Origin: an uncultured delta proteobacterium
GTDB lineage: Bacteria > Desulfobacterota > Desulfobacteria > Desulfobacterales > JAFDCJ01
Assembly: GCA_963769935.1 (NCBI GenBank)
Contig: CAVYNY010000013.1
Span: 288,001 to 352,000 of the forward strand
Length of the DNA stretch: 64,000 nt
Reading direction: 5' to 3'
Of this stretch, positions 13,437-27,268 are shown piece after piece; positions within the stretch are counted from its first letter, which is position 1; every line of letters starts with the position of its first letter. A model generated the notes under the pieces. The model made no database searches and was not told the origin of the DNA. It saw only the letters and a list, made by a program, of their open reading frames with translations. The translations under genes and the position numbers were made by a program.

Positions 13437-14673
13437 TTATTCAGACTTCCCGGCTCTGGCCGCCTCAATCTCCGCTTCGGGACGCCAGGAATCCGGGCCT
13501 TTGACCTCGACCAGATCATGGTAGATGGGGAAAGGATACCTGGGGTCATCGGCCACCACACCGAGGTAGGAAGAGCAGCTCAGCTGGTTGTCAATCTCAC
13601 GAAAATAGAGCCGGCCGCGGGTCGTATCGACGGTTGCCCCCTTGAGCGCATCCTTGACTTTATCGCTGTCGATGCTGCCTGCCTTTTCAATGCCCTGTTT
13701 CAGGACATACACCGCGTCATATTCCATTACGGCCCAGTCACTCGGATAGCGGTTGTAAACCTTTCTGAAGTTCGCTACAAAATTCGCCATCATGGGTACA
13801 TCCAGGTGGGCAAAAAAGGGCGCCCGGCACAATCCGACCAGACCGCGGGTAAGCGTTTTGGCTTCAATGATCAGCTCGGAGACACTGATCAACGATCCGG
13901 GATAAGGTATTTTGTCGAAGAATCCGTAGGCCGTCGCCTGCTGATTGAAGGCCACGTTGTCTTTTGAAGCCAGGGAACCGATTACAAAATCCGGCTTCTG
14001 GCTCATGATCGCCGTAATATAAGAGGTAAACTGCGTCTCGCCCAGGGCCGGCCAGTACTCTTTTTGCAGTGTCAATTCGGGTGCGTATTGTTTCAAGAGG
14101 GCCACCGTATTATTTTGGGTCGATCGGCCCCACTCATAATCCGAGGCAATGGTTATGTAATTTTTCCAGCCTTTCTTTTTGGCCAGCTGCAGCAACGCCT
14201 AAAACGACGGCCTTGGCCTGCATATAGCTGTTGGGAACCACCGAGTAGGTGTAAGGGCTGAAATTGACTTTGGTGATATTCTCCGAATTGCTGATGGCCG
14301 GAATATGAAGCACCTTGTGCTCCTGGGCCACCGGTTTTATGGCCACGGCACAGGCGCTGGAATAGGTCCCCAGAATGGTACGAACTTTATCCCGCAGGAT
14401 CAGGTCCCTGGCCTCGCGTACCGCAATGTCCGGTTTCGTATGGGTGTCGCGGATAAAGAGCTTGATGGGGTACTTGCCCAGGAATCCGCCCTGGGCGTTA
14501 ATCTCCTTCACGGCGAGTGAGATGGCGTCGATGCCGTCCTTGCAGTATAAAGCGCCGGTGCCGGTAATCGCCAGGTCGACTCCCAGATTATAAGTCTCCG
14601 CAGCCGGCGCCATGGCGGCGACCGCAATCACCATAAAAACACCAAGAAAAATTATAAAGCATTTACTTTTCAT
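13437..14673 (-). CDS. ABC substrate-binding protein (LIV-binding family), one frameshift near 14190
   Basis: 14134..14673 has signal peptide and EINAQGG..G; 13437..14195 has DYEWG, DFVIG; removing one base joins them. Confidence 0.85.
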
Positions 14674-14727
14674 TTCCTCCTCCTTGATTTGAATGTTGGC
14701 GGTTGGTTGGTTTAAGTTCCCATAATT

Positions 14728-14781
14728 TATAGGACTAATAGGACTAGATTATAGGGCCTATAGGACTTATAGGACCTATAG
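14728..14781. repeat. Nonamer tandem repeat TATAGGACY
   Basis: tataggact aataggact...tatagggcc tataggact tataggacc tatag. Confidence 0.85.
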
Positions 14782-14832
14782 AAAATAAGTAATTTGTCTA
14801 ACTGTTGTTGTCTATGGGCTCTGCTCTATGCC

Positions 14833-16371
14833 CTATAGCTTTGTTTGCCGGCCTTTCCAGTAGACTTCCCGCATCACCCGTTTGAGGGTTTTGCCCGCCA
14901 CGTTCCGGGGGAATTCATCCATGAAGACCACATCATGCACGCGCTGGAATTTGGCCGCCACCCGCTCATTGATCCAACAGCGCAGTTCGTCCGGCGAAAT
15001 CTCGCCGGGGCTGCGCAGCACAACCGCCGCCAGCGGAGTTTCCCCCCATTTATCATGGGGAATGCCGAAGACGGCGGCTTCCTGCACGGCCGGATGCTGC
15101 ACGACAATTTCCTCGATGTCTCTGGGATACACATTCACTCCGCCGGAGATGATCATGTCTTTAATGCGGTCCACCAGATACAGAAAGCCGTCTTCATCGA
15201 CATACCCCATATCCCCCGAGTGCAGCCAGCCGTCTTTGACGGCCGCGGTCGTCAAATCAGGCCGTTTGTAATATCCGGACATCAGAAGCGGCCCGCGGCC
15301 GCAGATTTCGCCGACGCCGCCGGCCGGGACCTCATTGCCGCTTTCATCCAAAATTTTCATATCGGAAAACGGCGTCGGCACGCCCACCGAGTCCGGCTTG
15401 GCGGCATAATCGAATTTATCCAAAACAGTTATGAAGCCCTCGGTTAACCCGTAGAGTTCGTAAAACCTTCCGGGCAATCGTTTATTGAGCGCTTCTTTAT
15501 GCTCCTTATGCAGGGGTGCTCCTAAAGAGAGTATCATCTCCAGGGATTTCAAGGCATCGAAGGAGAAATTGGGCGCATTCAAGATTGCAATAATCTGGGC
15601 CGGCACCAAAATGACATGGGTGACCTGTTCTCTTTGAATGGTTTCGATATAGGAGACCGGTTCAAACCCGCTCAGCAATATATAGGCTGCGCCCACATAC
15701 ACGGTGGGCATCAGATCGACAAAAGCGCCGTTAAATACGATGGCACCGGCGTGCATCGTAATGCTTTCCGGCGTCATTCGATACAAAGCAGCAAAGGTGG
15801 CTGCATACATTGCCCGAATGTAGTGGGTGTGGATAATTCCTTTGGGCAGGCCGGTGGTGCCACTGCTGTACATGATGTTAAAAGGGTCGGCATCCGTGAT
15901 GGTGCTGCCTTCCGGCTCCTGATCGCCGGCGGCGGCCTTGAGGGCATGATAGTCCTGAAAGCCGGTAATGCCGGAGGCATCCGTGAGAAGGTAGCGATCT
16001 TCGGCAATGGCCGGCAGTCCGGAGCGGATAGGGTTTATCTTTTCGACAAAACCGGCATTTGTAACCAGCAGCACCGAATCTGAATCCTGCAGCAGGGTTT
16101 GCATGGCTTTTTCAAGCAGCAGCGTGCTGAGCGGCACCACTACAGCGCCGGTTTTGGCAGCCGCCCAGTATACTTCAAGCAGTTCCAGGCAATTCGGCAA
16201 AATGGTCGCGACCTTGTCGCCTTTGCGAATACCAAGGCTTGACAGCGCATTGGCCAGCCGGTTGATGCTCCGGTTAAATTCAAGCCAGGTCAACCGCTGA
16301 TCGCCGAAAACGACGGCTAATTGGTTGGATCGATAGCGCGCATGCCGCGCAAAAAGCGAACCAATGTTCAT
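14833..16371 (-). CDS. Acyl-CoA synthetase / AMP-dependent ligase (class I adenylate-forming)
   Basis: YSSGTTGLPKG, YGLTE, GWLHSGDMG, DRIKDMIISGG, PRNVAGK. Confidence 0.93.
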   Translation of the reverse strand: MNIGSLFARHARYRSNQLAVVFGDQRLTWLEFNRSINRLANALSSLGIRKGDKVATILPNCLELLEVYWAAAKTGAVVVPLSTLLLEKAMQTLLQDSDSVLLVTNAGFVEKINPIRSGLPAIAEDRYLLTDASGITGFQDYHALKAAAGDQEPEGSTITDADPFNIMYSSGTTGLPKGIIHTHYIRAMYAATFAALYRMTPESITMHAGAIVFNGAFVDLMPTVYVGAAYILLSGFEPVSYIETIQREQVTHVILVPAQIIAILNAPNFSFDALKSLEMILSLGAPLHKEHKEALNKRLPGRFYELYGLTEGFITVLDKFDYAAKPDSVGVPTPFSDMKILDESGNEVPAGGVGEICGRGPLLMSGYYKRPDLTTAAVKDGWLHSGDMGYVDEDGFLYLVDRIKDMIISGGVNVYPRDIEEIVVQHPAVQEAAVFGIPHDKWGETPLAAVVLRSPGEISPDELRCWINERVAAKFQRVHDVVFMDEFPRNVAGKTLKRVMREVYWKGRQTKL

Positions 16372-16440
16372 TGTTTCCTCCGACGAAATTTCTCAAGCCG
16401 CACACATAAGGTGATCTAATACGGATGGCATCTTGCCGAT

Positions 16441-16491
16441 CTAAATGCCTAAATTGCCTAAAATGCTCTAAAATGCCTAAAATTTAGGCAT
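16441..16491. repeat. Nonamer repeat TGCCTAAAW ending in an inverted copy
   Basis: tgcctaaat tgcctaaaa tgctctaaaa tgcctaaaa tttaggca. Confidence 0.8.
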
Positions 16492-16560
16492 CCTATCATT
16501 CTCAATCCAACGACAATAACTACAGTTTTTTTCTTTATTTGATGTTTGTCCCCGTTTTGT

Positions 16561-16680
16561 CTCACCTTCTCAGCTTCTGACCTTCTCACCTTCTTTCTGC
16601 CCCCTGTCTTTACGATAGGCCCTATGCTCTATGCCCTCTGTCTTCTGACTTCTGTCTTCTGTCTTCTGTCCTTCCTGACT
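16561..16680. repeat. Three concatenated short-repeat arrays (8-mer CTCACCTT, 7-mer CYCTATG, 7-mer TCTGTCT) directly after the bdhA stop
   Basis: ctcacctt ctcagctt ctgacctt ctcacctt; ccctatg ctctatg ccctctg; tctgact tctgtct tctgtct tctgtcc. Confidence 0.85.
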
Positions 16681-17538
16681 TCAATACGTCAACACAACCC
16701 CGCCATCAAACAGCAAATCGCCGCCGACCAGATACCTGGCGTGTTTCGAAAAGCCGAAAATAAAAAGATTGGCCGCTTCGATCGGCGACATCATTTCCTT
16801 GATGCGCGAGGGGCCCATCATGACATCCCGCACGACGGCCTCCTGGGTAATTCCGCGCTGCTCGGCCTGGGCCGGGATCTGGTTCAGCGCCAGAGGGGTT
16901 TTGACAAATCCAGTGCTGATCGTAAAAGAGCGGATCCGGCCTTCTCCTTCCGCCGATATGGATTGGCTCAGGGCCCTTAAACCGAATTTGGTAATGTTGT
17001 AAACCGGTTTGTTTTTGGTACATATGTGGGCGTGGATGGAAGCCATATGGCCGATAACCCCGATACCATCGCTGCTTTGCTTCATGTGGCCGATGGCTAA
17101 TTTGGAAAGATAAAACGGTGCCCGCAGCATCAGGCGCTGCATCAGGTCGTATTTTTCCATGGGGAAATTTTCCACCGAATCAATGTGCTGGATGCCGGCG
17201 ATGTTGGCCACGTACCTGATGGATCCCAGTTTGGCGGCCTCGGATACGGCGCTTTCAATATCCGCATCCTGGGTCAGGTCGGTTTGGATAAAAATCATCT
17301 GTCCGCCCAGTTCACGGGCCAGATTCCGGGTCTTTTTACCCTCCTCTTTATTGATGTCCAGGCCCACGGTCATCAGGTTATTGGCGGCGGCGGCAATGGC
17401 CGTGGCCCTGCCGATTCCGGTGCCCGCACCGGTCACTACGCACACGTTGTCATGATTAAAACTTTGGTCTTCGAGAAAAAGAATTTCTTCCCGCTGAATA
17501 TGCGGTTCTCTTGTATCTGCAGGCTTTTGGGTCGGCAT
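16681..17538 (-). CDS. bdhA: D-3-hydroxybutyrate dehydrogenase-like SDR
   Basis: TGAGTGIG, AGIQHIDSVENFP, YNITKFG (YxxxK), GFVKTPL..NQIP; PHA-locus context. Confidence 0.75.
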   Translation of the reverse strand: MPTQKPADTREPHIQREEILFLEDQSFNHDNVCVVTGAGTGIGRATAIAAAANNLMTVGLDINKEEGKKTRNLARELGGQMIFIQTDLTQDADIESAVSEAAKLGSIRYVANIAGIQHIDSVENFPMEKYDLMQRLMLRAPFYLSKLAIGHMKQSSDGIGVIGHMASIHAHICTKNKPVYNITKFGLRALSQSISAEGEGRIRSFTISTGFVKTPLALNQIPAQAEQRGITQEAVVRDVMMGPSRIKEMMSPIEAANLFIFGFSKHARYLVGGDLLFDGGVVLTY

Positions 17539-18381: not shown

Positions 18382-18822
18382 TCATTTCGACTGCTTCTTT
18401 GGTGCCCGGGGCGGGCTCACCAGGGCTTCACCATCCACCACGGTGATATTCTCCTGATTGATGCAGTAAGTTTTGAGACGAACTTGTTTCTTGTCGGCTA
18501 TGATTTCAGCCACCTCGACGATGGCGGTGACGGTATCCCCGAATTTGACCGGTGCCCGGAAACTGACCTCCTGGCGCATGTAGACCGTTCCGGGCCCCGG
18601 CAGCATCGTACCGATGACGGTGGATATGAAGCTGGCCGACAGCATTCCGTGAACGATGCGGGTTTTAAAAAAAGTATCTTTGGCATACGCCTCATTGACA
18701 TGCGCCGGATTGAGGTCGCCGGTTACCCCGGCAAATAAATAGACATCGGACTCGGAAACCGTTTTGGAAAATTTGGCCGTGTCGCCCACCTGCAGTTCTT
18801 CAATTGTTTTTCCATTCATCAT
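18382..18822 (-). CDS. phaJ: MaoC-family (R)-specific enoyl-CoA hydratase
   Basis: FAGVTGDLNPAHVN hydratase motif, RIVHGML, LPGPG; PHA-locus context. Confidence 0.85.
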   Translation of the reverse strand: MMNGKTIEELQVGDTAKFSKTVSESDVYLFAGVTGDLNPAHVNEAYAKDTFFKTRIVHGMLSASFISTVIGTMLPGPGTVYMRQEVSFRAPVKFGDTVTAIVEVAEIIADKKQVRLKTYCINQENITVVDGEALVSPPRAPKKQSK

Positions 18823-18849: not shown

Positions 18850-18896
18850 TGAGTAAAGAATCCTGGCCCACAGAACCAGGTTTTCAATGTTGGAAT
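18850..18896. repeat. 47-bp dispersed repeat, copy 1
   Basis: tgagtaaagaatcctggcccacagaaccaggttttcaatgttggaat; homologous to 40389 and 60956. Confidence 0.75.
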
Positions 18897-19198: not shown

Positions 19199-20641
19199 AT
19201 GCCGGATTCCTTAATGACATTGTTTCCCTTTGTGCTCAACAGTCTTGAAGCCATGAAGATGCCGCTTCAGGCCTCCCTGGCATTCAATCAGGCCCAAATG
19301 CAATCGCTGGCCGCAAGCGTCGACATGTATAAAAACACCCAGGACCTGACTCTGAACTGGGCGCGCCGATATTCGCGCCTTTTGCCCACCGGATACCTTC
19401 AAAACGGCGACAAACTGCTGAAGCTTTATCAGGAGGGGGAGGCATCGCTGCTGGATTTGTGTAAAGAAAATATATTAAACCACCTGAGCCGATTTCAACA
19501 AAAACGTGCGGGCGAGCTGGAGTTTCTCAAGTTGTTCACCGATCAATGCAGCCGTCAGGAATGGCACGTCGAATACGACCCTTCGAAAATTCTGCTCGAC
19601 TTGCCCGGTCTGCGGGTGATCGACATTTCGGCGGATGTGCGGCATCGCATCTTAAACTATGGGGTTGTTTTTGCCCCGCGCGCCGGCCACCACTCCAACA
19701 TAGCCGAGCGGGTCGCTCTTTTCCTGCGTGATCAGGGACTGACCCGCATGGTGGTGGTGGAACAAAAATGCGCCGCCGACATCCCGCTTTATGTCGATGG
19801 TCAACGCCATCGGGAGGATTTTGAGGGTCAGGTCGACCAGTATCGGCAGGTGCTGGAACTCCTGAAACAGCGCACCGGACATTCACCCCATTTGATCGCC
19901 ATCTGTCAACCCGGACCCCTGCTGCTGAGCACCCTGATTTTATATCCGGAACTGGGCCGCACCTTCGGATCGGCCGGCTCCCCCATGCATACCGAAGCCG
20001 AAAAAGGATTCTTGACAGAATTTGCCCGTGCGGCCGGTGAAGCCTATATTGACCGGATGATTGCCCTTTTCGGCCACACCATCGGCGAGGATTATCCCGG
20101 TGCCGGACGGTTGACATACGATGGCCGGCTGCAGGTGCTGGGTTTTTATTTGATGGGCTGGGATCAACATTTCAAGAACTTCAAAGATCTTCTGAATGAC
20201 ATGAAAAAGGGAGACAGGGAAGCCGCCCGGCGTCAAAAAGCATTTTATCAGTGGTACAACACGGTGCATCACTTTCCGGCGGGCTTTATCCGCGACACTT
20301 ACAAAAAAATATTTGTCCAAAACGCCCTGATCCGCGGTCACCTCGAAATCGGCGGCCAAAAAGTGGATATTGCCGATTATCCGGTTCAGACTCCCATCTG
20401 GGCCTTGGGCGGCACGACGGACCCTATTGCTCCGCCCCTGCAGGCGGTCGGCCACATGGATTTGATGCCGGCCATGGCTCAGCAAAACCGCCTGCGTCTT
20501 TTATGCGACGCCGGCCACATGGGACTCTTCCGCTCCCAACGCATTTTAAAACAGTACTACCGCCGGATAGCAGATTTTCTCATTGACTCACAGCGACTAT
20601 GCCAACCGGGAGTTTATGTACTAAAAGGCACGAAGCATTGA
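19199..20641 (+). CDS. phaZ: Intracellular PHA depolymerase (PhaZa-type, Cys nucleophile) with N-terminal extension
   Basis: VFAPRAGHH, HLIAICQP (Cys), GGTTDPI (Asp), GHMGLF (His), matching the VCQP/GHYG motifs. Confidence 0.75.
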   Translation: MPDSLMTLFPFVLNSLEAMKMPLQASLAFNQAQMQSLAASVDMYKNTQDLTLNWARRYSRLLPTGYLQNGDKLLKLYQEGEASLLDLCKENILNHLSRFQQKRAGELEFLKLFTDQCSRQEWHVEYDPSKILLDLPGLRVIDISADVRHRILNYGVVFAPRAGHHSNIAERVALFLRDQGLTRMVVVEQKCAADIPLYVDGQRHREDFEGQVDQYRQVLELLKQRTGHSPHLIAICQPGPLLLSTLILYPELGRTFGSAGSPMHTEAEKGFLTEFARAAGEAYIDRMIALFGHTIGEDYPGAGRLTYDGRLQVLGFYLMGWDQHFKNFKDLLNDMKKGDREAARRQKAFYQWYNTVHHFPAGFIRDTYKKIFVQNALIRGHLEIGGQKVDIADYPVQTPIWALGGTTDPIAPPLQAVGHMDLMPAMAQQNRLRLLCDAGHMGLFRSQRILKQYYRRIADFLIDSQRLCQPGVYVLKGTKH

Positions 20642-20818
20642 ATATTGAAAATTGAAGATTGAATATTTATGGATTTCAGTCGGTTTAAATTTGAATATTC
20701 TAAATTCTTATCCGCCCTCCTTATTGGTGCATTAGGATTTATTACTCTGGTTTTTTTTGCTTAGCATGCAAAATTAAATCGATAGGATACCGCAAATATT
20801 CAATTTCAATATTCAATC
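20637..20818. repeat. Element with inverted heptamer arms (ATTGAAN) whose outer units contain the stop codons of convergent phaZ and phaR
   Basis: attgaat attgaaa attgaag attgaat at 20637; attcaat ttcaat attcaat at 20798-20817. Confidence 0.8.
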
Positions 20819-21280
20819 TTCATTCTCCTTAGTTGGCGGTTTCGATTCGCCGAATTGATCGAAAAACGCCTGAAAGGGATTGAGTCGGGTCAATGACTGC
20901 TGCGCCATTCCCGAAAGATCCATCCCCACTTCCAGCCATTTTTTAAATTGCTCATCAGCCTTGCTTTTATACGACACGTAGGATTTGATGGTCTGTTCGA
21001 GGTAATTCTCAAAAAATTCATGCAGCACATTCTCGCCGTATCAAATAATCATGTGCAGTAGGGGCACTGGCAACAAGGCATTATTATTTTTAGCCTCTTC
21101 CAAAATGATCTGCGTCAGGACAAAGGCCGTCACATCCTCTTTGGTCTTGGCGTCAATCGCTTGGATCGTTTTACCCTGCCGGATGATGTCGGCCACTTCG
21201 CTCAGGGTCACATAGGCGCTTTTTTGGGTGTCATACAGGCGCCGGTTGGCATATTTTTTCAGCACGATCCTGTCATTCAT
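20813..21280 (-). pseudogene. phaR: PHA synthesis repressor PhaR interrupted by a single in-frame TGA (21041-21043)
   Basis: KKYANRRLYDT..S.YVTL, DAKTKEDVTAFVLTQII; reads LLHMII*YGENVLHEFFENYLE in one frame. Confidence 0.85.
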
Positions 21281-21451: not shown

Positions 21452-21497
21452 TGCAATGCAAAAATTTTATTGACAAGGTTTAAAAACCGTTTATATT
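21452..21497 (+). promoter_or_regulatory. Sigma-70-like promoter of the phasin-like gene with adjacent TGC-N3-GCA candidate PhaR operator
   Basis: TGCAATGCA 21452-21460; TTGACA 21470-21475, 16 bp, TATATT 21492-21497. Confidence 0.55.
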
Positions 21498-21592: not shown

Positions 21593-21865
21593 ATGATGGA
21601 ACCGAATGTATTGCTAAAACAAATGTTGGATTTTAACAAAACCGCCTTCGACAACAGCTTTAGTGCGATGTTGATGATTCAGGAGCAAAATGCCAAAATG
21701 GTAAACACCTTTCTGGAGCAGGCCGCCTGGATGCCCGAAGAAGGCAAAAAACTCATCCGGAACTGGGTTGATGTTTACAAAAAGGGATGTGAAGACTTCA
21801 AGAAAGCCGCCAATGAAAATTATAAAAAGGTGGATGAATTTTTCGCAGGCCAAAAGTCCGAATAA
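21593..21865 (+). CDS. Phasin-like small amphipathic helical protein
   Basis: 90 aa, helical amphipathic pattern, GGGAGG RBS, divergent from phaR. Confidence 0.6.
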   Translation: MMEPNVLLKQMLDFNKTAFDNSFSAMLMIQEQNAKMVNTFLEQAAWMPEEGKKLIRNWVDVYKKGCEDFKKAANENYKKVDEFFAGQKSE

Positions 21866-21906: not shown

Positions 21907-23525
21907 ATGAATGCACATATTGACGATACGACCGGTAAAATTTTGGCGCGATCTTCCGGAATACCAGCGCCAGATGCTTCAACTCGCCGCAGCACAAATG
22001 CGAACCGGTGTGGTCATACGGCAGCGCTCTTGTCAAGTATCACCATGAATTCATGCAGCCCTTCTGGATCGCACTGGACGCGTTCTTAACCACGGAAAAA
22101 GAAAAACTCCTGCGTCATCCTCCTGCCGATAGTATGCGGGACTATTTTGAGCTTTTGCAGTTCAACCTTCAGGTGGCCGAGAAGGGATTCCATAGCGGTC
22201 TGAACGCCATGCTGGACTACCACGGCGCCAGGACCAATAAAGCCATGCAGGCATGGCTGAATACCATCTTCAAGCGTGAAGGAGAGACGATTGTCGATTT
22301 TACCGAAAATGAGGCCCGGTTGCTGGAGACCCTCCTTTACGACTATCCTGAAAGCCATTCGCGCCATAAAACCCGAATACGGCTTCCACTTCGATAACGG
22401 CGGCTACGTCAAAGCCGGCGAAACGGACCGCTTTCTGGTATATCAGGTGTTGCCGACCAACCACGAGGGTGTCAGAGAGAACGGCAAACCGGTTCTCATC
22501 GTGCCGCCTTATGTTCTGGGGGCCAACATCCTGGCATTTTTACCCGGGGAAAACAAAAGCTATGTGCATGCCTATGCCAATCAGGGGATCCCCACCTACA
22601 TTCGCATTCTCAAAGATATCGCTGCGACGCCGGCCGTGCAAACCCTCACCGGAGAACAGGATGCGCTGGATACCCGCACATTTTGTGAGATCATTAAAAA
22701 AAGGCACGGGCAACCCGTCACCCTGAACGGCTTCTGCCAGGGGGGATTTGTAGCTATGACCGGCCTGCTGTCCGGCGAACTGGACGACCTGGTGGATGCC
22801 TTGATTACCTGCGTGGCGCCCATGGACGGCACCCGCAGCAAAGCCCTGGTGGAGTACATGCAGCACCTTCCGCCGCGTTTCAAAGACCTGGGCTATGCCG
22901 TCAAACCATTGCCCAACGGCAACCGCGTCGTGGACGGCAAGGTTATGAGCTGGGTTTACAAGCTGAAAAGCATGGAAAATGAAGCGCCGTTGTATACCCT
23001 GTATCGAGACTTGAAAATGTTTCGACAACGCGGTACCGCGGACCGGCCAAAATCAGCAAAACGGCGGCCGCCATCAACAATTGGTTAATTTATGACCGCA
23101 ATGACCTGCCCGAAGCGATAACCAAAATGAGTTTCGATTCCTATACCATCCCGGTGGATCGCCAAGGCAACCTGCCCTTCAAGCTGTTCGACCGCAGCCT
23201 GAATTTCAAGCGTCTGCAGGAAAAAAACATCCCGTTTCTCATTTGCTATGGTGAAAAAGACGACCTGGTGGATAAGGAAGCCGCCTTGGCGCCGCTGGAT
23301 TACATCCCGGCCGAAGTTACCTGTTTTCCCAAAGGCCACGGCGCAATTGCCACCTCCTGGTCGCAGCCTGATTCCGCCTGTGCCCTGCACACCCGATTCG
23401 GCGACAACTACCGCGGTCCGGTCCGCTTTCATTTGGACCTTGAGAACGGTATCAGCGCGAAACCGATCCAGGATGACATATCTTTGATTTCACACCAAAG
23501 TGAGTGGTGTTTGCCGATCGGATAG
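21907..23525 (+). CDS. Divergent PHA-synthase-like alpha/beta hydrolase (second PhaC-like), several frameshifts
   Basis: Pieces from 21907, 22008..22397, 22276..23088, 23127..23525; PVLIVPPYVL, NGFCQGG (Cys), YGEKDDLV (Asp), KGHGAI (His). Confidence 0.7.
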
Positions 23526-23563
23526 ACCCCATGGAATAATGGAATGTTGGGAATCAAAAGCCG

Positions 23564-24040
23564 ATGGACAGACAATTCTTAGAATTCTGGGGCAATTACC
23601 TGCTGGCGGCTGCCAGAGGACAAAAGCAGCTGGAGGATCTGAATCAATGGATTCGGCCAGGGATTCAGCGGATTTGAAGAATTGACCGCCATGTTCAAAA
23701 AGTTTTACGGCCTCGAGCAGCCCCGCACTGAAGACTCGGATACAACGCAAGGCGTGGCAGAATGCGGCGGCCGACTTTCGCAACTCCTTCAATGCCTATT
23801 TGAATCTGATGGGTCTGGTCCCAAAAGACAAATACCGGGCGCTGGAACAAAAGTGTACCACGCTGCAAAAAAAAGTCGCTGAACAGGAGGATACCATCAA
23901 GGTCGCTGAGAAAACTGCTGGCCGAGGAGGGCACCTATCAGGGCGAGACCGTCAAGGTTTTTCAGGATCTGGTGAAAAAGCAGGCGGACGCATTTGAGGC
24001 GTTAATGAAAAGTATAGCGCCAGCGGCTAAAGAAGAATAG
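23564..24040 (+). CDS. Small PhaE-like coiled-coil protein, frameshifted
   Basis: Reconstructed MDRQFLEFWGNYLLAAARGQKQLEDLNQWIR...FKKFYGL...YLNLMGLVPKDKYRALEQKCTTLQKKVAEQE...SIAPAAKEE*. Confidence 0.5.
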
Positions 24041-24062: not shown

Positions 24063-25109
24063 TCAAAACCACGAGCGATGGCTCCAGATATCGTCTTTTA
24101 GCTCTTTCATGTCATCCTGCAGCGCCAGATACATTGAAGCATTCTGGATCGCCAGGCCGCCGGTTTGGGCCAAGGCGTTGACCAGCAGGATGATATCTTC
24201 AGGATAGCTGCGTTTGACGGCACTGCAAAGCCGCATGATTCCGATGACCTCCTCCTTGACCTTGATGGGAACCACCAGCATGGAAGCAATACCCTCCCGC
24301 ATGACCTCATCCCGGTATTGGATTCGCTCATCATTGGCGACATCATCGATGATGACCGTCTCGCCTTGCATGGCCTTGGTGACGGACTTTTCGGCCGACA
24401 GCGGGCCCTTGTTTAAAAATTCTTCGCTCAAGCCGTGGCTGGCCACCAGCTGCAGATTGCCGGTCTCCTTATTCAGGAGACGGATGACGACCCCTTGCAT
24501 GCCCAAGGCTTCGCTGAGGTCCACTGTCAGGTTGTGAAAGATCTTCTTAACATCCAGGGAAGAGTTGATGTTGGAGGCCAGGTCCAAAAAGAGCATGGAG
24601 TTTTTCTGAATACGCTCCAGCAGACGGGCCCTTTGGATGGCCATACCGCCTTGTTCGGCCAGGGCGGTTAAAAATTCGATTTCATCGGTGGAAAAATCTC
24701 GTACGTCGGCAGTGTATAACGCCAGCACGCCGATCACCTTGTCTCTGACCATCACCGGCACATCCAATATGGAGGCAATGCCATCGGCTTTCTTGGCTGC
24801 ATGGTTTTCAACGCGCGGATCAGAGGTTGCATCACGAATGGCAAGATAGCCGCCTTTTAAGACGGCCAGTACGATGGCTTTGGCCCGCAGGGGTTTGGCG
24901 TGCAGGTAGTCGTCCGAAAGTCCCTTTTGCGCCGTCGGAACGAAAACATCTCGTTTTTCATCAGCCAGAAACAGGCAGGCTGCTTTGGCATTCATCGTTT
25001 CAATGGCGCTTTCTACAATCAGATCCAGAATCTTTTCCTTGGAAAGTGTTGATCCGAAGGCTTTGCTCACCTTGCAGAATGTTCTGAAATAATCCTTCTC
25101 TTTTGTCAT
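24063..25109 (-). CDS. Tandem GAF-GAF protein without output domain
   Basis: Two GAF repeats (GLSDDYL/GLSEEFL; SILDVPV/SMLVVPI); ATGA overlap with the phaC stop. Confidence 0.85.
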   Translation of the reverse strand: MTKEKDYFRTFCKVSKAFGSTLSKEKILDLIVESAIETMNAKAACLFLADEKRDVFVPTAQKGLSDDYLHAKPLRAKAIVLAVLKGGYLAIRDATSDPRVENHAAKKADGIASILDVPVMVRDKVIGVLALYTADVRDFSTDEIEFLTALAEQGGMAIQRARLLERIQKNSMLFLDLASNINSSLDVKKIFHNLTVDLSEALGMQGVVIRLLNKETGNLQLVASHGLSEEFLNKGPLSAEKSVTKAMQGETVIIDDVANDERIQYRDEVMREGIASMLVVPIKVKEEVIGIMRLCSAVKRSYPEDIILLVNALAQTGGLAIQNASMYLALQDDMKELKDDIWSHRSWF

Positions 25110-26318
25110 ACAATATCTCCTCGCAGTTGGGATCGTGAGCTGCTCTTTCTTGGCCGGGTTGAAGGCTTATTTTTTGCTGCAGCCTTGCGGGAATCTCCTT
25201 TGGCAGAGGCTGGTTTCTTTTTCCGGCGCCCGTCATCTTCCGTATCCCGATCCATAAGCCATGCGGCTATCTTCGGTGCAAATTCCTTCTGGCACTTCGA
25301 ACTCACATAGATGCCGATGTGACCGGTATCCAGGCACACATCTTCGGTATCGCGGCTGCCGACTTTGCGAGGTCAGCAGCTCGCAGGCCGCGGGTGGCAC
25401 CAGATGATCAAACTTGCCGTAGAAATTCAACAGCGGCATCGTGATATTTTTCAAGTCGACCCGGCGTCCCCCGACCTCCATCTGGTTTTGAATCAACAGG
25501 TTCTTTTGATAGCAATCTTTGACAAACTGGCGAAATGTTTCGCCGGGTACGTCCGGACTGTCAAATATCCATTTTTCCATGCGAATGAAATTTTCGACAA
25601 ATGTTTTGTCGTCCATGCCCTCCAAAAAGCCGACGTATTTATCGATCATCAATCGCGCCGGGTTCAGCAGCAAAAACCCGAAGTTTAAAAAGTCGCCCGG
25701 CATATTGCCGAAGGTATCCACCATCCGGTCCGCATCCACATTTTTCATCCAGATGTGCAGCAATCCCTGATCGGTGTCAAAATTGGTGGGGGTGACGGTG
25801 GTCACCAGATTTTTTAATTTTTCGGGATGCAGCGCAGCATAAATGACGCTGAAGGTGCCGCCCATACAGATTCCCATCAGGTTGATTTTGTCCACCTTAT
25901 GCCGGGCACGAATGAAATCAACCATATTGTCCATATAGCCGTTGACGTGGTCGTCAATGGTCAGAAACTTATCTTTGCGGGTCGGATAGCCCCAATCAAC
26001 CATATACAGATCGATGCCGAAATCCTGAAAGATTTTCACGACGCTGCGCCCCGGCTGCAGATCGAGCATGGTTTCCCGGTTGATCAGGGCGTAAACCACC
26101 AGCAGCGGCCGCCTTAGTTTTGGCGCCTGATTTGGCTGATAATATTTCAGTTTGACACGATCTTCTTCATAGACAATATCGTAGGGCGTCTTAGCGATGC
26201 CGGTGTCCAACTCCTGGAGTAAAACATCGGAAGCTTTCTGAACACGGGTGCGGGCCTTCTCGGCGTCTTCGGCCAGTCTGGTGAGAATTAAGTCAACGGG
26301 GATTTTGGGTTTTTCCAT
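25106..26318 (-). CDS. phaC: Class III PHA synthase subunit PhaC, one frameshift near 25370
   Basis: PLLVVYALINR..MLDLQPGRS, LMGICMGG, RMEKWIFDSPDVPGE, DHLVPP, then TGHIGIYVS in the next frame. Confidence 0.93.
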
Positions 26319-26347: not shown

Positions 26348-27268
26348 TTAGGCTGTGGGTAACTGCTGTTTCTGAGAATCTGATTGCAACGTATATTTTT
26401 CTTTTTCCAGGATTTTAATCCTTTTTTTCAGCTGATACATTTCTTTGTAAAGTTCATCGAGTTCATTTTGAGTCGGCACCGCCATGGCCTTTAAAATATC
26501 CTGGCCAATGGCATTGCGCGCTTCAACAAAATCTTCAAGGGCACCCAGGGTGTTTCCCATGATCTTTACATAGTCGGGGGATTTGAACAGGGACATGTAA
26601 TGTCCTTCCAGAATTTTTATATATACCTTATAAAAGTCGTTCGAATTTTCGGGCAATTTCCCTTCCCGCGCCATGTCGGATAGTTGCTCCTGAAAAACCT
26701 TGAAAGATTTTTCGACCGGCAGCAGGATCAGATGCATAAACTCCGCATACTGGGACTGAAAGCGGTTGTGTTTGTCCAGCGTCGCGTTGATTTTTTCCTG
26801 ATAGAATCGGGTGAGCCCAAGCTGGGGGATATGAAAAAATTGCCGGAACTCCTTTTCGTAAATTTCCGTCCAGGCCTTGAAGACCTCTTCATCGAGATTG
26901 TCAAAGTTAAAGGCGCGGGTCGATTCACCGATTCGGCCGGCCTTTTCCAGCCACTGCTGCTGAAGATAAAAATAGCTTCTCCACCCGGCCTCGACGATTT
27001 GCAGCAAAAATTGCGGCATCGCCCGGCCCAGATTGGAAAACGCTTCCATGGCGCCGGAATCCCCGGCGACCGATGAAAGCGTCTGCCAGGAGCTAAACAC
27101 CGTTTCAAAGGATTCCTGTGTACGGCTTTTCTCACCCTTTGCGGAATCGTCACCGGCCGCATCCTTTTTCGCCCAGTTCTGAAGCATGGAACCCCAGAAA
27201 TCCGCCGCGGATTTGATCCAGGCCGACAGCAAGGTATCGGCGGCTTGATTACCTTTTTGATTATCCAT
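26348..27268 (-). CDS. phaE: Class III PHA synthase subunit PhaE
   Basis: Start MDNQK at 27268; IPQLGLTRFYQE, VPTQNELDELYKEMYQLKKRIK; directly upstream of phaC. Confidence 0.9.
   Translation of the reverse strand: MDNQKGNQAADTLLSAWIKSAADFWGSMLQNWAKKDAAGDDSAKGEKSRTQESFETVFSSWQTLSSVAGDSGAMEAFSNLGRAMPQFLLQIVEAGWRSYFYLQQQWLEKAGRIGESTRAFNFDNLDEEVFKAWTEIYEKEFRQFFHIPQLGLTRFYQEKINATLDKHNRFQSQYAEFMHLILLPVEKSFKVFQEQLSDMAREGKLPENSNDFYKVYIKILEGHYMSLFKSPDYVKIMGNTLGALEDFVEARNAIGQDILKAMAVPTQNELDELYKEMYQLKKRIKILEKEKYTLQSDSQKQQLPTA

Follow-up and report, generated by a model that had tools for sequence, protein, structure and literature searches.

A divergent PhaC-fold protein of the PhaR-phasin gene module in Desulfobacterota is a candidate polyhydroxyalkanoate synthase outside the recognised classes

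The window analysed here, a 64,000-nucleotide stretch of an uncultured deltaproteobacterial genome (contig CAVYNY010000013.1), carries a polyhydroxyalkanoate (PHA) gene cluster in which a phasin-led unit on the plus strand coexists with ordinary class III PhaEC genes. That unit consists of a phasin-like gene (21593-21865, 90 aa), a gene that we call X (21907-23525) for a PhaC-fold Cys-Asp-His protein, and a gene that we call Y (23564-24040) for an all-helical protein, in keeping with an earlier note on this DNA that had placed X downstream of a phasin-like gene. The phasin-like product has no phasin Pfam match itself, and one of its relatives matches Phasin_2 (E = 0.005). Tail to tail with X and Y runs a minus-strand unit, the phaEC that the note had described the pair as facing: a tandem-GAF gene (24063-25109) that travels with phaEC, a canonical class III phaC (25233-26318; TIGR01836 389 bits, cut-off 365; one insertion near 25370) and phaE (26348-27268; PF09712 above cut-off). 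Beyond the phasin gene lie a divergent phaR-type repressor gene (PF07879; 20813-21280, minus strand), a candidate PhaZ-like intracellular depolymerase gene (19199-20641, plus strand; PF06850 above cut-off, TIGR01849 121 bits and below cut-off), a neighbouring MaoC/PhaJ-like enoyl-CoA hydratase gene (18382-18822, minus strand) and a 3-hydroxybutyrate-dehydrogenase-like SDR gene (16681-17538, minus strand) that falls below cut-off and is linked in 1 of 80 loci of relatives. In this assembly phaR has an in-frame stop at 21041-21043 (minus strand), with no indel relative to two relatives. At two short intergenic stretches (18850-18896 and 20637-20673) many unrelated contigs pile up with loose ends, which suggests dispersed repeats.

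Between phaR and the phasin gene, a TGC-N3-GCA palindrome (21452-21460) forms a predicted PhaR operator, and just downstream of it sits a sigma-70-like promoter match (11/12; 21470-21497, plus strand), which is a consensus match only. The palindrome recurs in 75 of 78 phaR-phasin spacers, against 2.4 expected from shuffles, and is the motif given for PhbF/PhaR in a published study (PMC3206438). Because the intergenic gaps are short (41 bases between the phasin gene and X, 38 between X and Y) and one strong promoter match lies upstream, we infer that the three genes are co-transcribed. RNA-library contigs from one study span all three, with a contig depth that cannot rank genes or prove transcription.

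X is broken in the assembly as it stands: in a three-frame translation its motifs are scattered across shifting frames. Alignment with relatives places one-base insertions near 21935, 22015, 22350, 23021 and 23032, and reading through these five gives 537 aa with no internal stop, 477 of them identical to an intact 528-aa relative (P0001). The frameshifted frame with ordered PhaC-like motifs that had been described there is thus recovered, all four motifs lying in the expected order: PVLIVPPYVL (22489-22518), GFCQGG (22729-22746), GEKDDLV (23250-23270) and KGHGAI (23331-23348). Likewise, after three breaks near 23653, 23748 and 23905, Y reads as the roughly 157-aa protein that had been proposed (157 aa), with LMGLVPKDKYRALEQK at 23806, 118 residues identical to a 158-aa relative and no internal stop. 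These frameshifts are likely assembly errors, an assignment that stops short of proof because the short-read populations compared are not the same strain. That the window's copy is instead a real pseudogene of a functional family, a matter separate from what the family does, is highly improbable: the insertions are denser here (eight in 2.1 kb, where phaC and the PhaZ-like gene have a single one apiece and the GAF gene, phaE and maoC have none), phaR carries its in-frame stop and no sequencing run is the same strain (best share of words 0.37), but all eight changes are one-base insertions, the read-throughs hold no nonsense codons, aligned relatives have none of the eight, and in the rows shown seven of them are also missing from short-read contigs of close populations (four runs). 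We also considered programmed frameshifting and rejected it, the relatives of X being open frames of 507-594 codons.

The structure model of P0001 (pLDDT 82, pTM 0.82) has helices over residues 2-153 followed by an alpha/beta core, as expected from the helical N-terminal extension of about 150 aa that had been noticed, and places Cys276 at a strand-helix elbow of that core. In a Foldseek search, class I PhaC structures took ranks 1-13 (E = 3e-11 to 2e-9; next family 3e-7). VIA gave two class I PhaC matches at Z 23.6 (304 residues aligned, rmsd 4.0) and Z 22.5 (376 aligned, rmsd 5.8), the latter covering model residues 17-517, with the next fold at 19.7. By this model X belongs with the PhaC/PhaZ superfamily, having an alpha/beta-hydrolase fold, an elbow Cys and a later Asp and His. 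No Cys-type intracellular depolymerase was among the structure matches listed, so this fold ranking cannot tell synthase from depolymerase. A sequence search of solved structures with X returned 0 matches at E 1.

On alignment, the predicted nucleophile Cys276 (codon 22735-22737, plus strand; in GFCQGG), the predicted catalytic Asp450 (23259-23261, plus strand) and His476 (23337-23339, plus strand; in KGHGAI), together with Asp306 after the nucleophile helix and Trp391, fall on the corresponding PhaC residues and do not vary across 44 rows, Cys276 being invariant in a 42-row alignment as well. The GEKDDLV motif named earlier as the Asp motif is present, its catalytic residue being by alignment the first Asp of the DD pair; Asp therefore follows Asp450 where known synthases have His. 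Tallies anchored on columns of the aligned rows set X apart on both sides. Asp-His occurs at the catalytic Asp in 20 of 20 reference synthases (sampled from classes I, III and IV) versus 0 of 19 X rows, whereas Asp-Asp or Asp-Asn occurs in 14 of the 19 and in all 13 PhaZ-like and DUF3141 rows. The IN[KR]-type loop of all 20 synthases and the [AS]G[HN] loop of all 13 PhaZ-like and DUF3141 rows are both absent from 19 of 19 X rows, and the SW/DW motif of synthases is missing as well. The GxCQGG elbow is common to class III, depolymerase-like and DUF3141 proteins, and so is not diagnostic.

Profile searches tell a similar story of distance. The best NCBIfam match in all seven intact members examined is class III PhaC TIGR01836, at 20-38 bits against a cut-off of 365; TIGR01838 (class I) reaches at most 13 bits, TIGR01839 (class II) is not listed for any of these 7 at E up to 1, and neither PF07167 (PhaC_N) nor the PhaZa-type PF06850 and TIGR01849 match, an [AS]G-H-H loop being absent too. 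Among 29 members scanned, no PHA-related Pfam cut-off was reached; the matches above cut-off were to TIR and NB-ARC, both in a single fusion protein, and, marginally, one to a methyltransferase. The fusion (P0134, 938 aa) carries the X catalytic domain behind TIR and NB-ARC and is either real or a chimera.

The family is nonetheless large. Searching longer proteins with the central 238 aa of X gave at least 1,989 clusters (E 0.001), and a profile search gave 327 representatives at 50% clustering, the most distant at 21% identity and still with the triad. The homologues listed are mostly 490-540 aa long and named hypothetical, hydrolase or 'metal transporter'; we rejected the last label, since X has a hydrolase fold and none of 4 members examined shows more than a single marginal hydrophobic window (1.6-1.8), which falls mostly on a core strand. 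Named relatives come mostly from Desulfobacterales, Syntrophales and other deltaproteobacteria, and X occurs in 16 of 41 relatives, in 56 of 151 genomes of the window's order and in 15 of 251 of the phylum. A plasmid search returned one weak DUF3141-type match, and a metagenome scan for the gene context of the most distant members gave nothing. Literature searches that covered few subscription papers gave no published description. X belongs to an unnamed family that is widespread in Desulfobacterota.

In a 54-row quick tree, X groups as a single clade (SH-aLRT 100) whose long branch lies between the synthases on one side and PhaZ-like groups on the other. Approximately unbiased (AU) tests on 27 of these rows (LG+G4, quick tree; trees without class II sequence) rejected a grouping of X inside ordinary class III PhaC (p = 0.009), which the earlier note had named as a check on its claim; the low similarity it had reported to the neighbouring PhaC also holds (22% over 354 columns, E = 0.001). 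The best tree places X outside the class I clade, but the tests do not reject its joining class I (p = 0.08), one PhaZ-like group (p = 0.07) or PhaZa and its relatives (p = 0.15). Class III/IV was the nearest profile in 11 of 15 balanced rounds and PhaZa the lowest, with scores of 112 for class III/IV and 101 for a PhaZ-like subfamily. X is, by the tests run, a new branch of the known PhaC/PhaZ superfamily outside classes I-III, with class IV membership unsupported. Sequence alone excludes ordinary class III and fits either direction of reaction, since the PhaZ-like groupings are not rejected and a PhaZ-like profile scores close behind.

The surroundings of X are those of PHA storage. The note had also named, as evidence against its claim, homologues unlinked to PHA genes; surveys by locus and by genome found X linked to them. 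Across 80 X loci, many ended early by contig ends, we counted a phasin-like gene in 76, Y in 68, phaR in 62, the GAF gene in 52, phaE in 51, maoC in 45 and a PhaZ-like gene in 24, with a second PhaZ-like type in eight further loci; 49 ORFs were classed as canonical PhaC. Y lies within 700 bases 3' of X in 78 of the 91 loci long enough to show it. In several Syntrophales loci X-Y-phaE-phaC-GAF-maoC all point the same way, and the convergence seen in the window is therefore a variable arrangement. No PHA gene was detected close to some X copies, a tandem pair among them (L111, L113-L115, L166-L168, L170).

The deciding comparison comes from the 64 genomes of the class to which G267 belongs. Of these, 23 hold X, 24 phaR and 21 Y, and 27 give a TIGR01836 match. 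Every one of the 23 with X also carries phaR, and 20 of them carry Y, whereas neither phaR nor Y occurs in any of the 13 genomes that have class III PhaC without X. A single genome (G305) has phaR with no X or PhaC match. Nine of the 23 X genomes (G181, G267, G321, G322, G323, G325, G326, G335 and G339; drafts, 90-99% complete) gave no match to TIGR01836 at E 1e-8, a threshold at which class I is picked up too, against about 1.1 expected from incompleteness; with genomes treated as independent, nine would be unlikely even at three times that rate (0.002). Further searches found no class I PhaC in the 7 of these 9 genomes searched for it, no PhaE in the 7 searched for that, and no DUF3141 in the 5 searched; one of these follow-up searches ran without a positive control. 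Eight of the nine share one X clade, with 3 state changes on the tree, 2 of them forced by supported branches, so that the state has changed independently about two or three times. Binning could also have dropped a phaEC module that lies elsewhere in the genome.

In the loci of these genomes, phasin, X, Y and a FabG/PhaB-like reductase (130 bits against a PhaB cut-off of 302) are present in 9 of 9 and a thiolase in 7, two contigs ending early, in the order thiolase, phaR, phasins, X, Y, reductase. Among the nine genomes X has dN/dS of 0.07-0.27 at dS 0.7-1.9, indicating purifying selection; in one, GYCQCG replaces GYCQGG. PHA granules require a synthase, and phasins with a granule-titrated repressor imply granules; on this established biology, such genomes would need a synthase. 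Within the window's order, class III PhaC is matched as well in 53 of the 56 genomes with X, and of the 3 without a match one has its locus at a contig end, with phaE adjacent. G198, from the phylum sample, has X and no PhaC match, at a locus that ends at a contig edge. Patatin and permease genes, presumably candidates for polymer breakdown and 3-hydroxybutyrate transport, accompany four of the nine loci and are inserted at differing places in the module (L109, L149, L151, L155).

The partner gene is harder to place. The structure model of Y is all-helical (pLDDT 74, pTM 0.43) and its sequence is conserved. Its proposed likeness to PhaE stands in part: Y matches a PhaE C-terminus profile at E = 7e-4 over 62 coiled-coil columns, and an atlas lead (0.83) runs from Y to a small PhaE-domain cluster. 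The resemblance is weak, however, and other families match more often: of 35 members, 7 match the phasin family, 7 BMFP and 2 PhaE (PF09712, best E = 8e-5). No match was found between Y and haloarchaeal PhaE (E = 0.17), between the X N-domain and PhaE (E = 0.4), or between the Y profile and the ORFs of two Bacillus-type loci (L098, L124). In three genomes that gave no match to X, distant homologues of Y (E = 1e-8 to 1e-12) stand 5' of an ordinary phaEC (L162:2-346, L163:5021-5485, L164:5161-5604). A complex prediction for X and Y scored 0.00, with no bearing either way. Y is possibly a subunit of X, and a role as a general granule protein is about as likely. Split or fused forms were considered and rejected: long X members end in Lys/Ala/Pro-rich tails, not Y.

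Taken together, we favour X as a divergent PHA synthase outside classes I-IV, with a probability of about 0.6, because X stays with the storage genes in some relatives whose genomes yielded no standard PHA synthase. The earlier proposal, an uncharacterised synthase subclass or else a Cys-type depolymerase or transacylase, keeps both its alternatives, with the gene content of relatives pointing towards the first. As a synthase, X would take an acyl group from 3-hydroxyacyl-CoA onto Cys276, activated by His476, and Asp450 would help to add it to the growing polyester chain, the monomer coming from the linked PhaJ-like hydratase or from thiolase and reductase. The 150-residue helical N-terminus may cap the catalytic domain and mediate dimerisation, as the class I PhaC N-domain does; we infer a similar role from the A. 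caviae enzyme, in which the helical N-domain serves dimerisation and gives the product tunnel its shape (PMC12184317). Acting at the TGC-N3-GCA box, PhaR would keep the phasin-X-Y unit repressed until it is titrated off by granules, and Y would serve as a granule-bound accessory or activating subunit. Against the synthase reading stand the missing Asp-His, IN[KR] and SW/DW motifs and a tree that, on sequence, cannot separate synthase from depolymerase, as do the small number of independent events behind the nine PhaC-less draft genomes and the class III PhaC match in most X genomes of the window's order.

Those same residues lend weight to a different role, in which X, as a Cys-type depolymerase or thiolytic transacylase bound to the granule, would mobilise the PHA that PhaEC makes and set free monomer, oligomers or 3-hydroxyacyl-CoA, with thiolase and reductase running degradatively. 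The Asp-Asp/Asn pair and the Gln after Cys are those of PhaZ-like groups, the AU tests do not reject such groupings, PhaC is also present in nearly all X genomes of the window's order, and in 48 of 80 loci the flank retrieved holds no other PhaZ-like gene; PMC7147478 describes a PhaZa1-dependent thiolysis to 3HB-CoA. Yet a PhaZ-like gene already adjoins X in the window and is present in 32 of 80 loci, X has neither the [AS]G[HN] loop nor a PF06850 or TIGR01849 match, and PhaZa is its most distant profile. Above all, this reading leaves an enzyme with no polymer in the nine genomes that keep X, phasins and phaR under purifying selection and in which no synthase was found, and we consider it unlikely.

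X might also be an accessory acyltransferase, acting in priming, chain transfer or termination, or might make another polyester, a polythioester or a short oligomer in phasin-coated bodies. The absence of both loop motifs, the long branch, the retention of X beside a full class III synthase in most genomes and the extra copies with no PHA neighbours would all suit such roles. The linked thiolase, reductase, hydratase, phasins and PhaR box nevertheless indicate 3-hydroxyacyl-CoA and PHA granules, and an accessory role alone leaves the PhaC-less genomes unexplained, making this a very unlikely account.

Set against characterised systems, X resembles each in part. It shares with class III PhaC/PhaE the alpha/beta-hydrolase core, the GxCxGG elbow, the Cys-Asp-His order, the conserved Trp, the best family and profile match and a small helical partner gene. 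It differs in length (510-540 aa versus about 360), in its bit score far under the cut-off, in the missing Asp-His, IN[KR] and DW motifs and in the rejected joint clade, while Y is half the size of the window's PhaE and barely matches it. For class III the comparison is Desulfococcus multivorans PhaEC, which we take to be a class III PHA synthase; it is reportedly the subject of a 2004 paper that could describe neighbouring ORFs. The best structural matches of the model are class I enzymes (Cupriavidus necator 5t6o, Chromobacterium 5xav and Aeromonas caviae 9knj-9knl), which X would resemble in combining an N-terminal helical domain with a catalytic domain, the build that PMC12184317 gives for the A. 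caviae enzyme. The match to the N-domain is loose (rmsd 5.8, for the whole-model alignment and not the N-domain alone), and X differs from class I in its 13-18% identity, its lack of PF07167, its TIGR01838 score and its motifs. As in class IV PhaC/PhaR of Bacillus, a small coiled-coil partner gene of similar size accompanies X and the class III/IV profile is the best, but X is about 160 aa longer and lies outside the class III/IV branch. With the Cys-type depolymerases (PhaZa, TIGR01849/PF06850) and DUF3141 proteins it shares Cys-Gln, Asp-Asp/Asn and a PHA-cluster location; unlike them it has no family match or [AS]G[HN] loop, scores lowest with PhaZa and persists where no synthase is found.

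Four PHA synthase classes are recognised (PMC12455824). We put at even odds the fuller proposal that X is a fifth: a deep, separate PhaC/PhaZ branch with its own motifs and partner Y, forming the core synthase of a PhaR-phasin granule module in anaerobic Desulfobacterota, the sole synthase in some lineages, and missed by all PhaC profiles tried. If X polymerises, it would be a fifth synthase lineage without a motif present in all 20 aligned synthases, would bear on what divides polymerase from depolymerase on the PhaC fold and would give bioplastic work a new catalyst. The carbon stored by sulfate-reducing and syntrophic anaerobes would then be under-counted, since 56 of 151 genomes in the window's order carry X under a wrong label. 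Should X be a depolymerase instead, it would be a new granule-mobilising family.

The tandem-GAF protein has no output domain detected, lies beside phaEC in 52 of 80 loci and remains next to phaEC in loci that have no X, phaR or phasins (L143, L144); it is possibly a regulator of class III PhaEC. In a group of loci (L107, L109, L112, L149, L151, L152, L154-L158, L161), stand-alone GNAT acetyltransferase genes lie on either side of the X-module thiolase gene. Syntrophales loci also encode a further PhaC-like protein of about 600 aa (L068, L069, L075, L079, L086, L089, L092, L094, L095, at about 14000-17000), with AYCMAG at the elbow and Asp-Pro replacing Asp-His, on its own long branch among the synthases.
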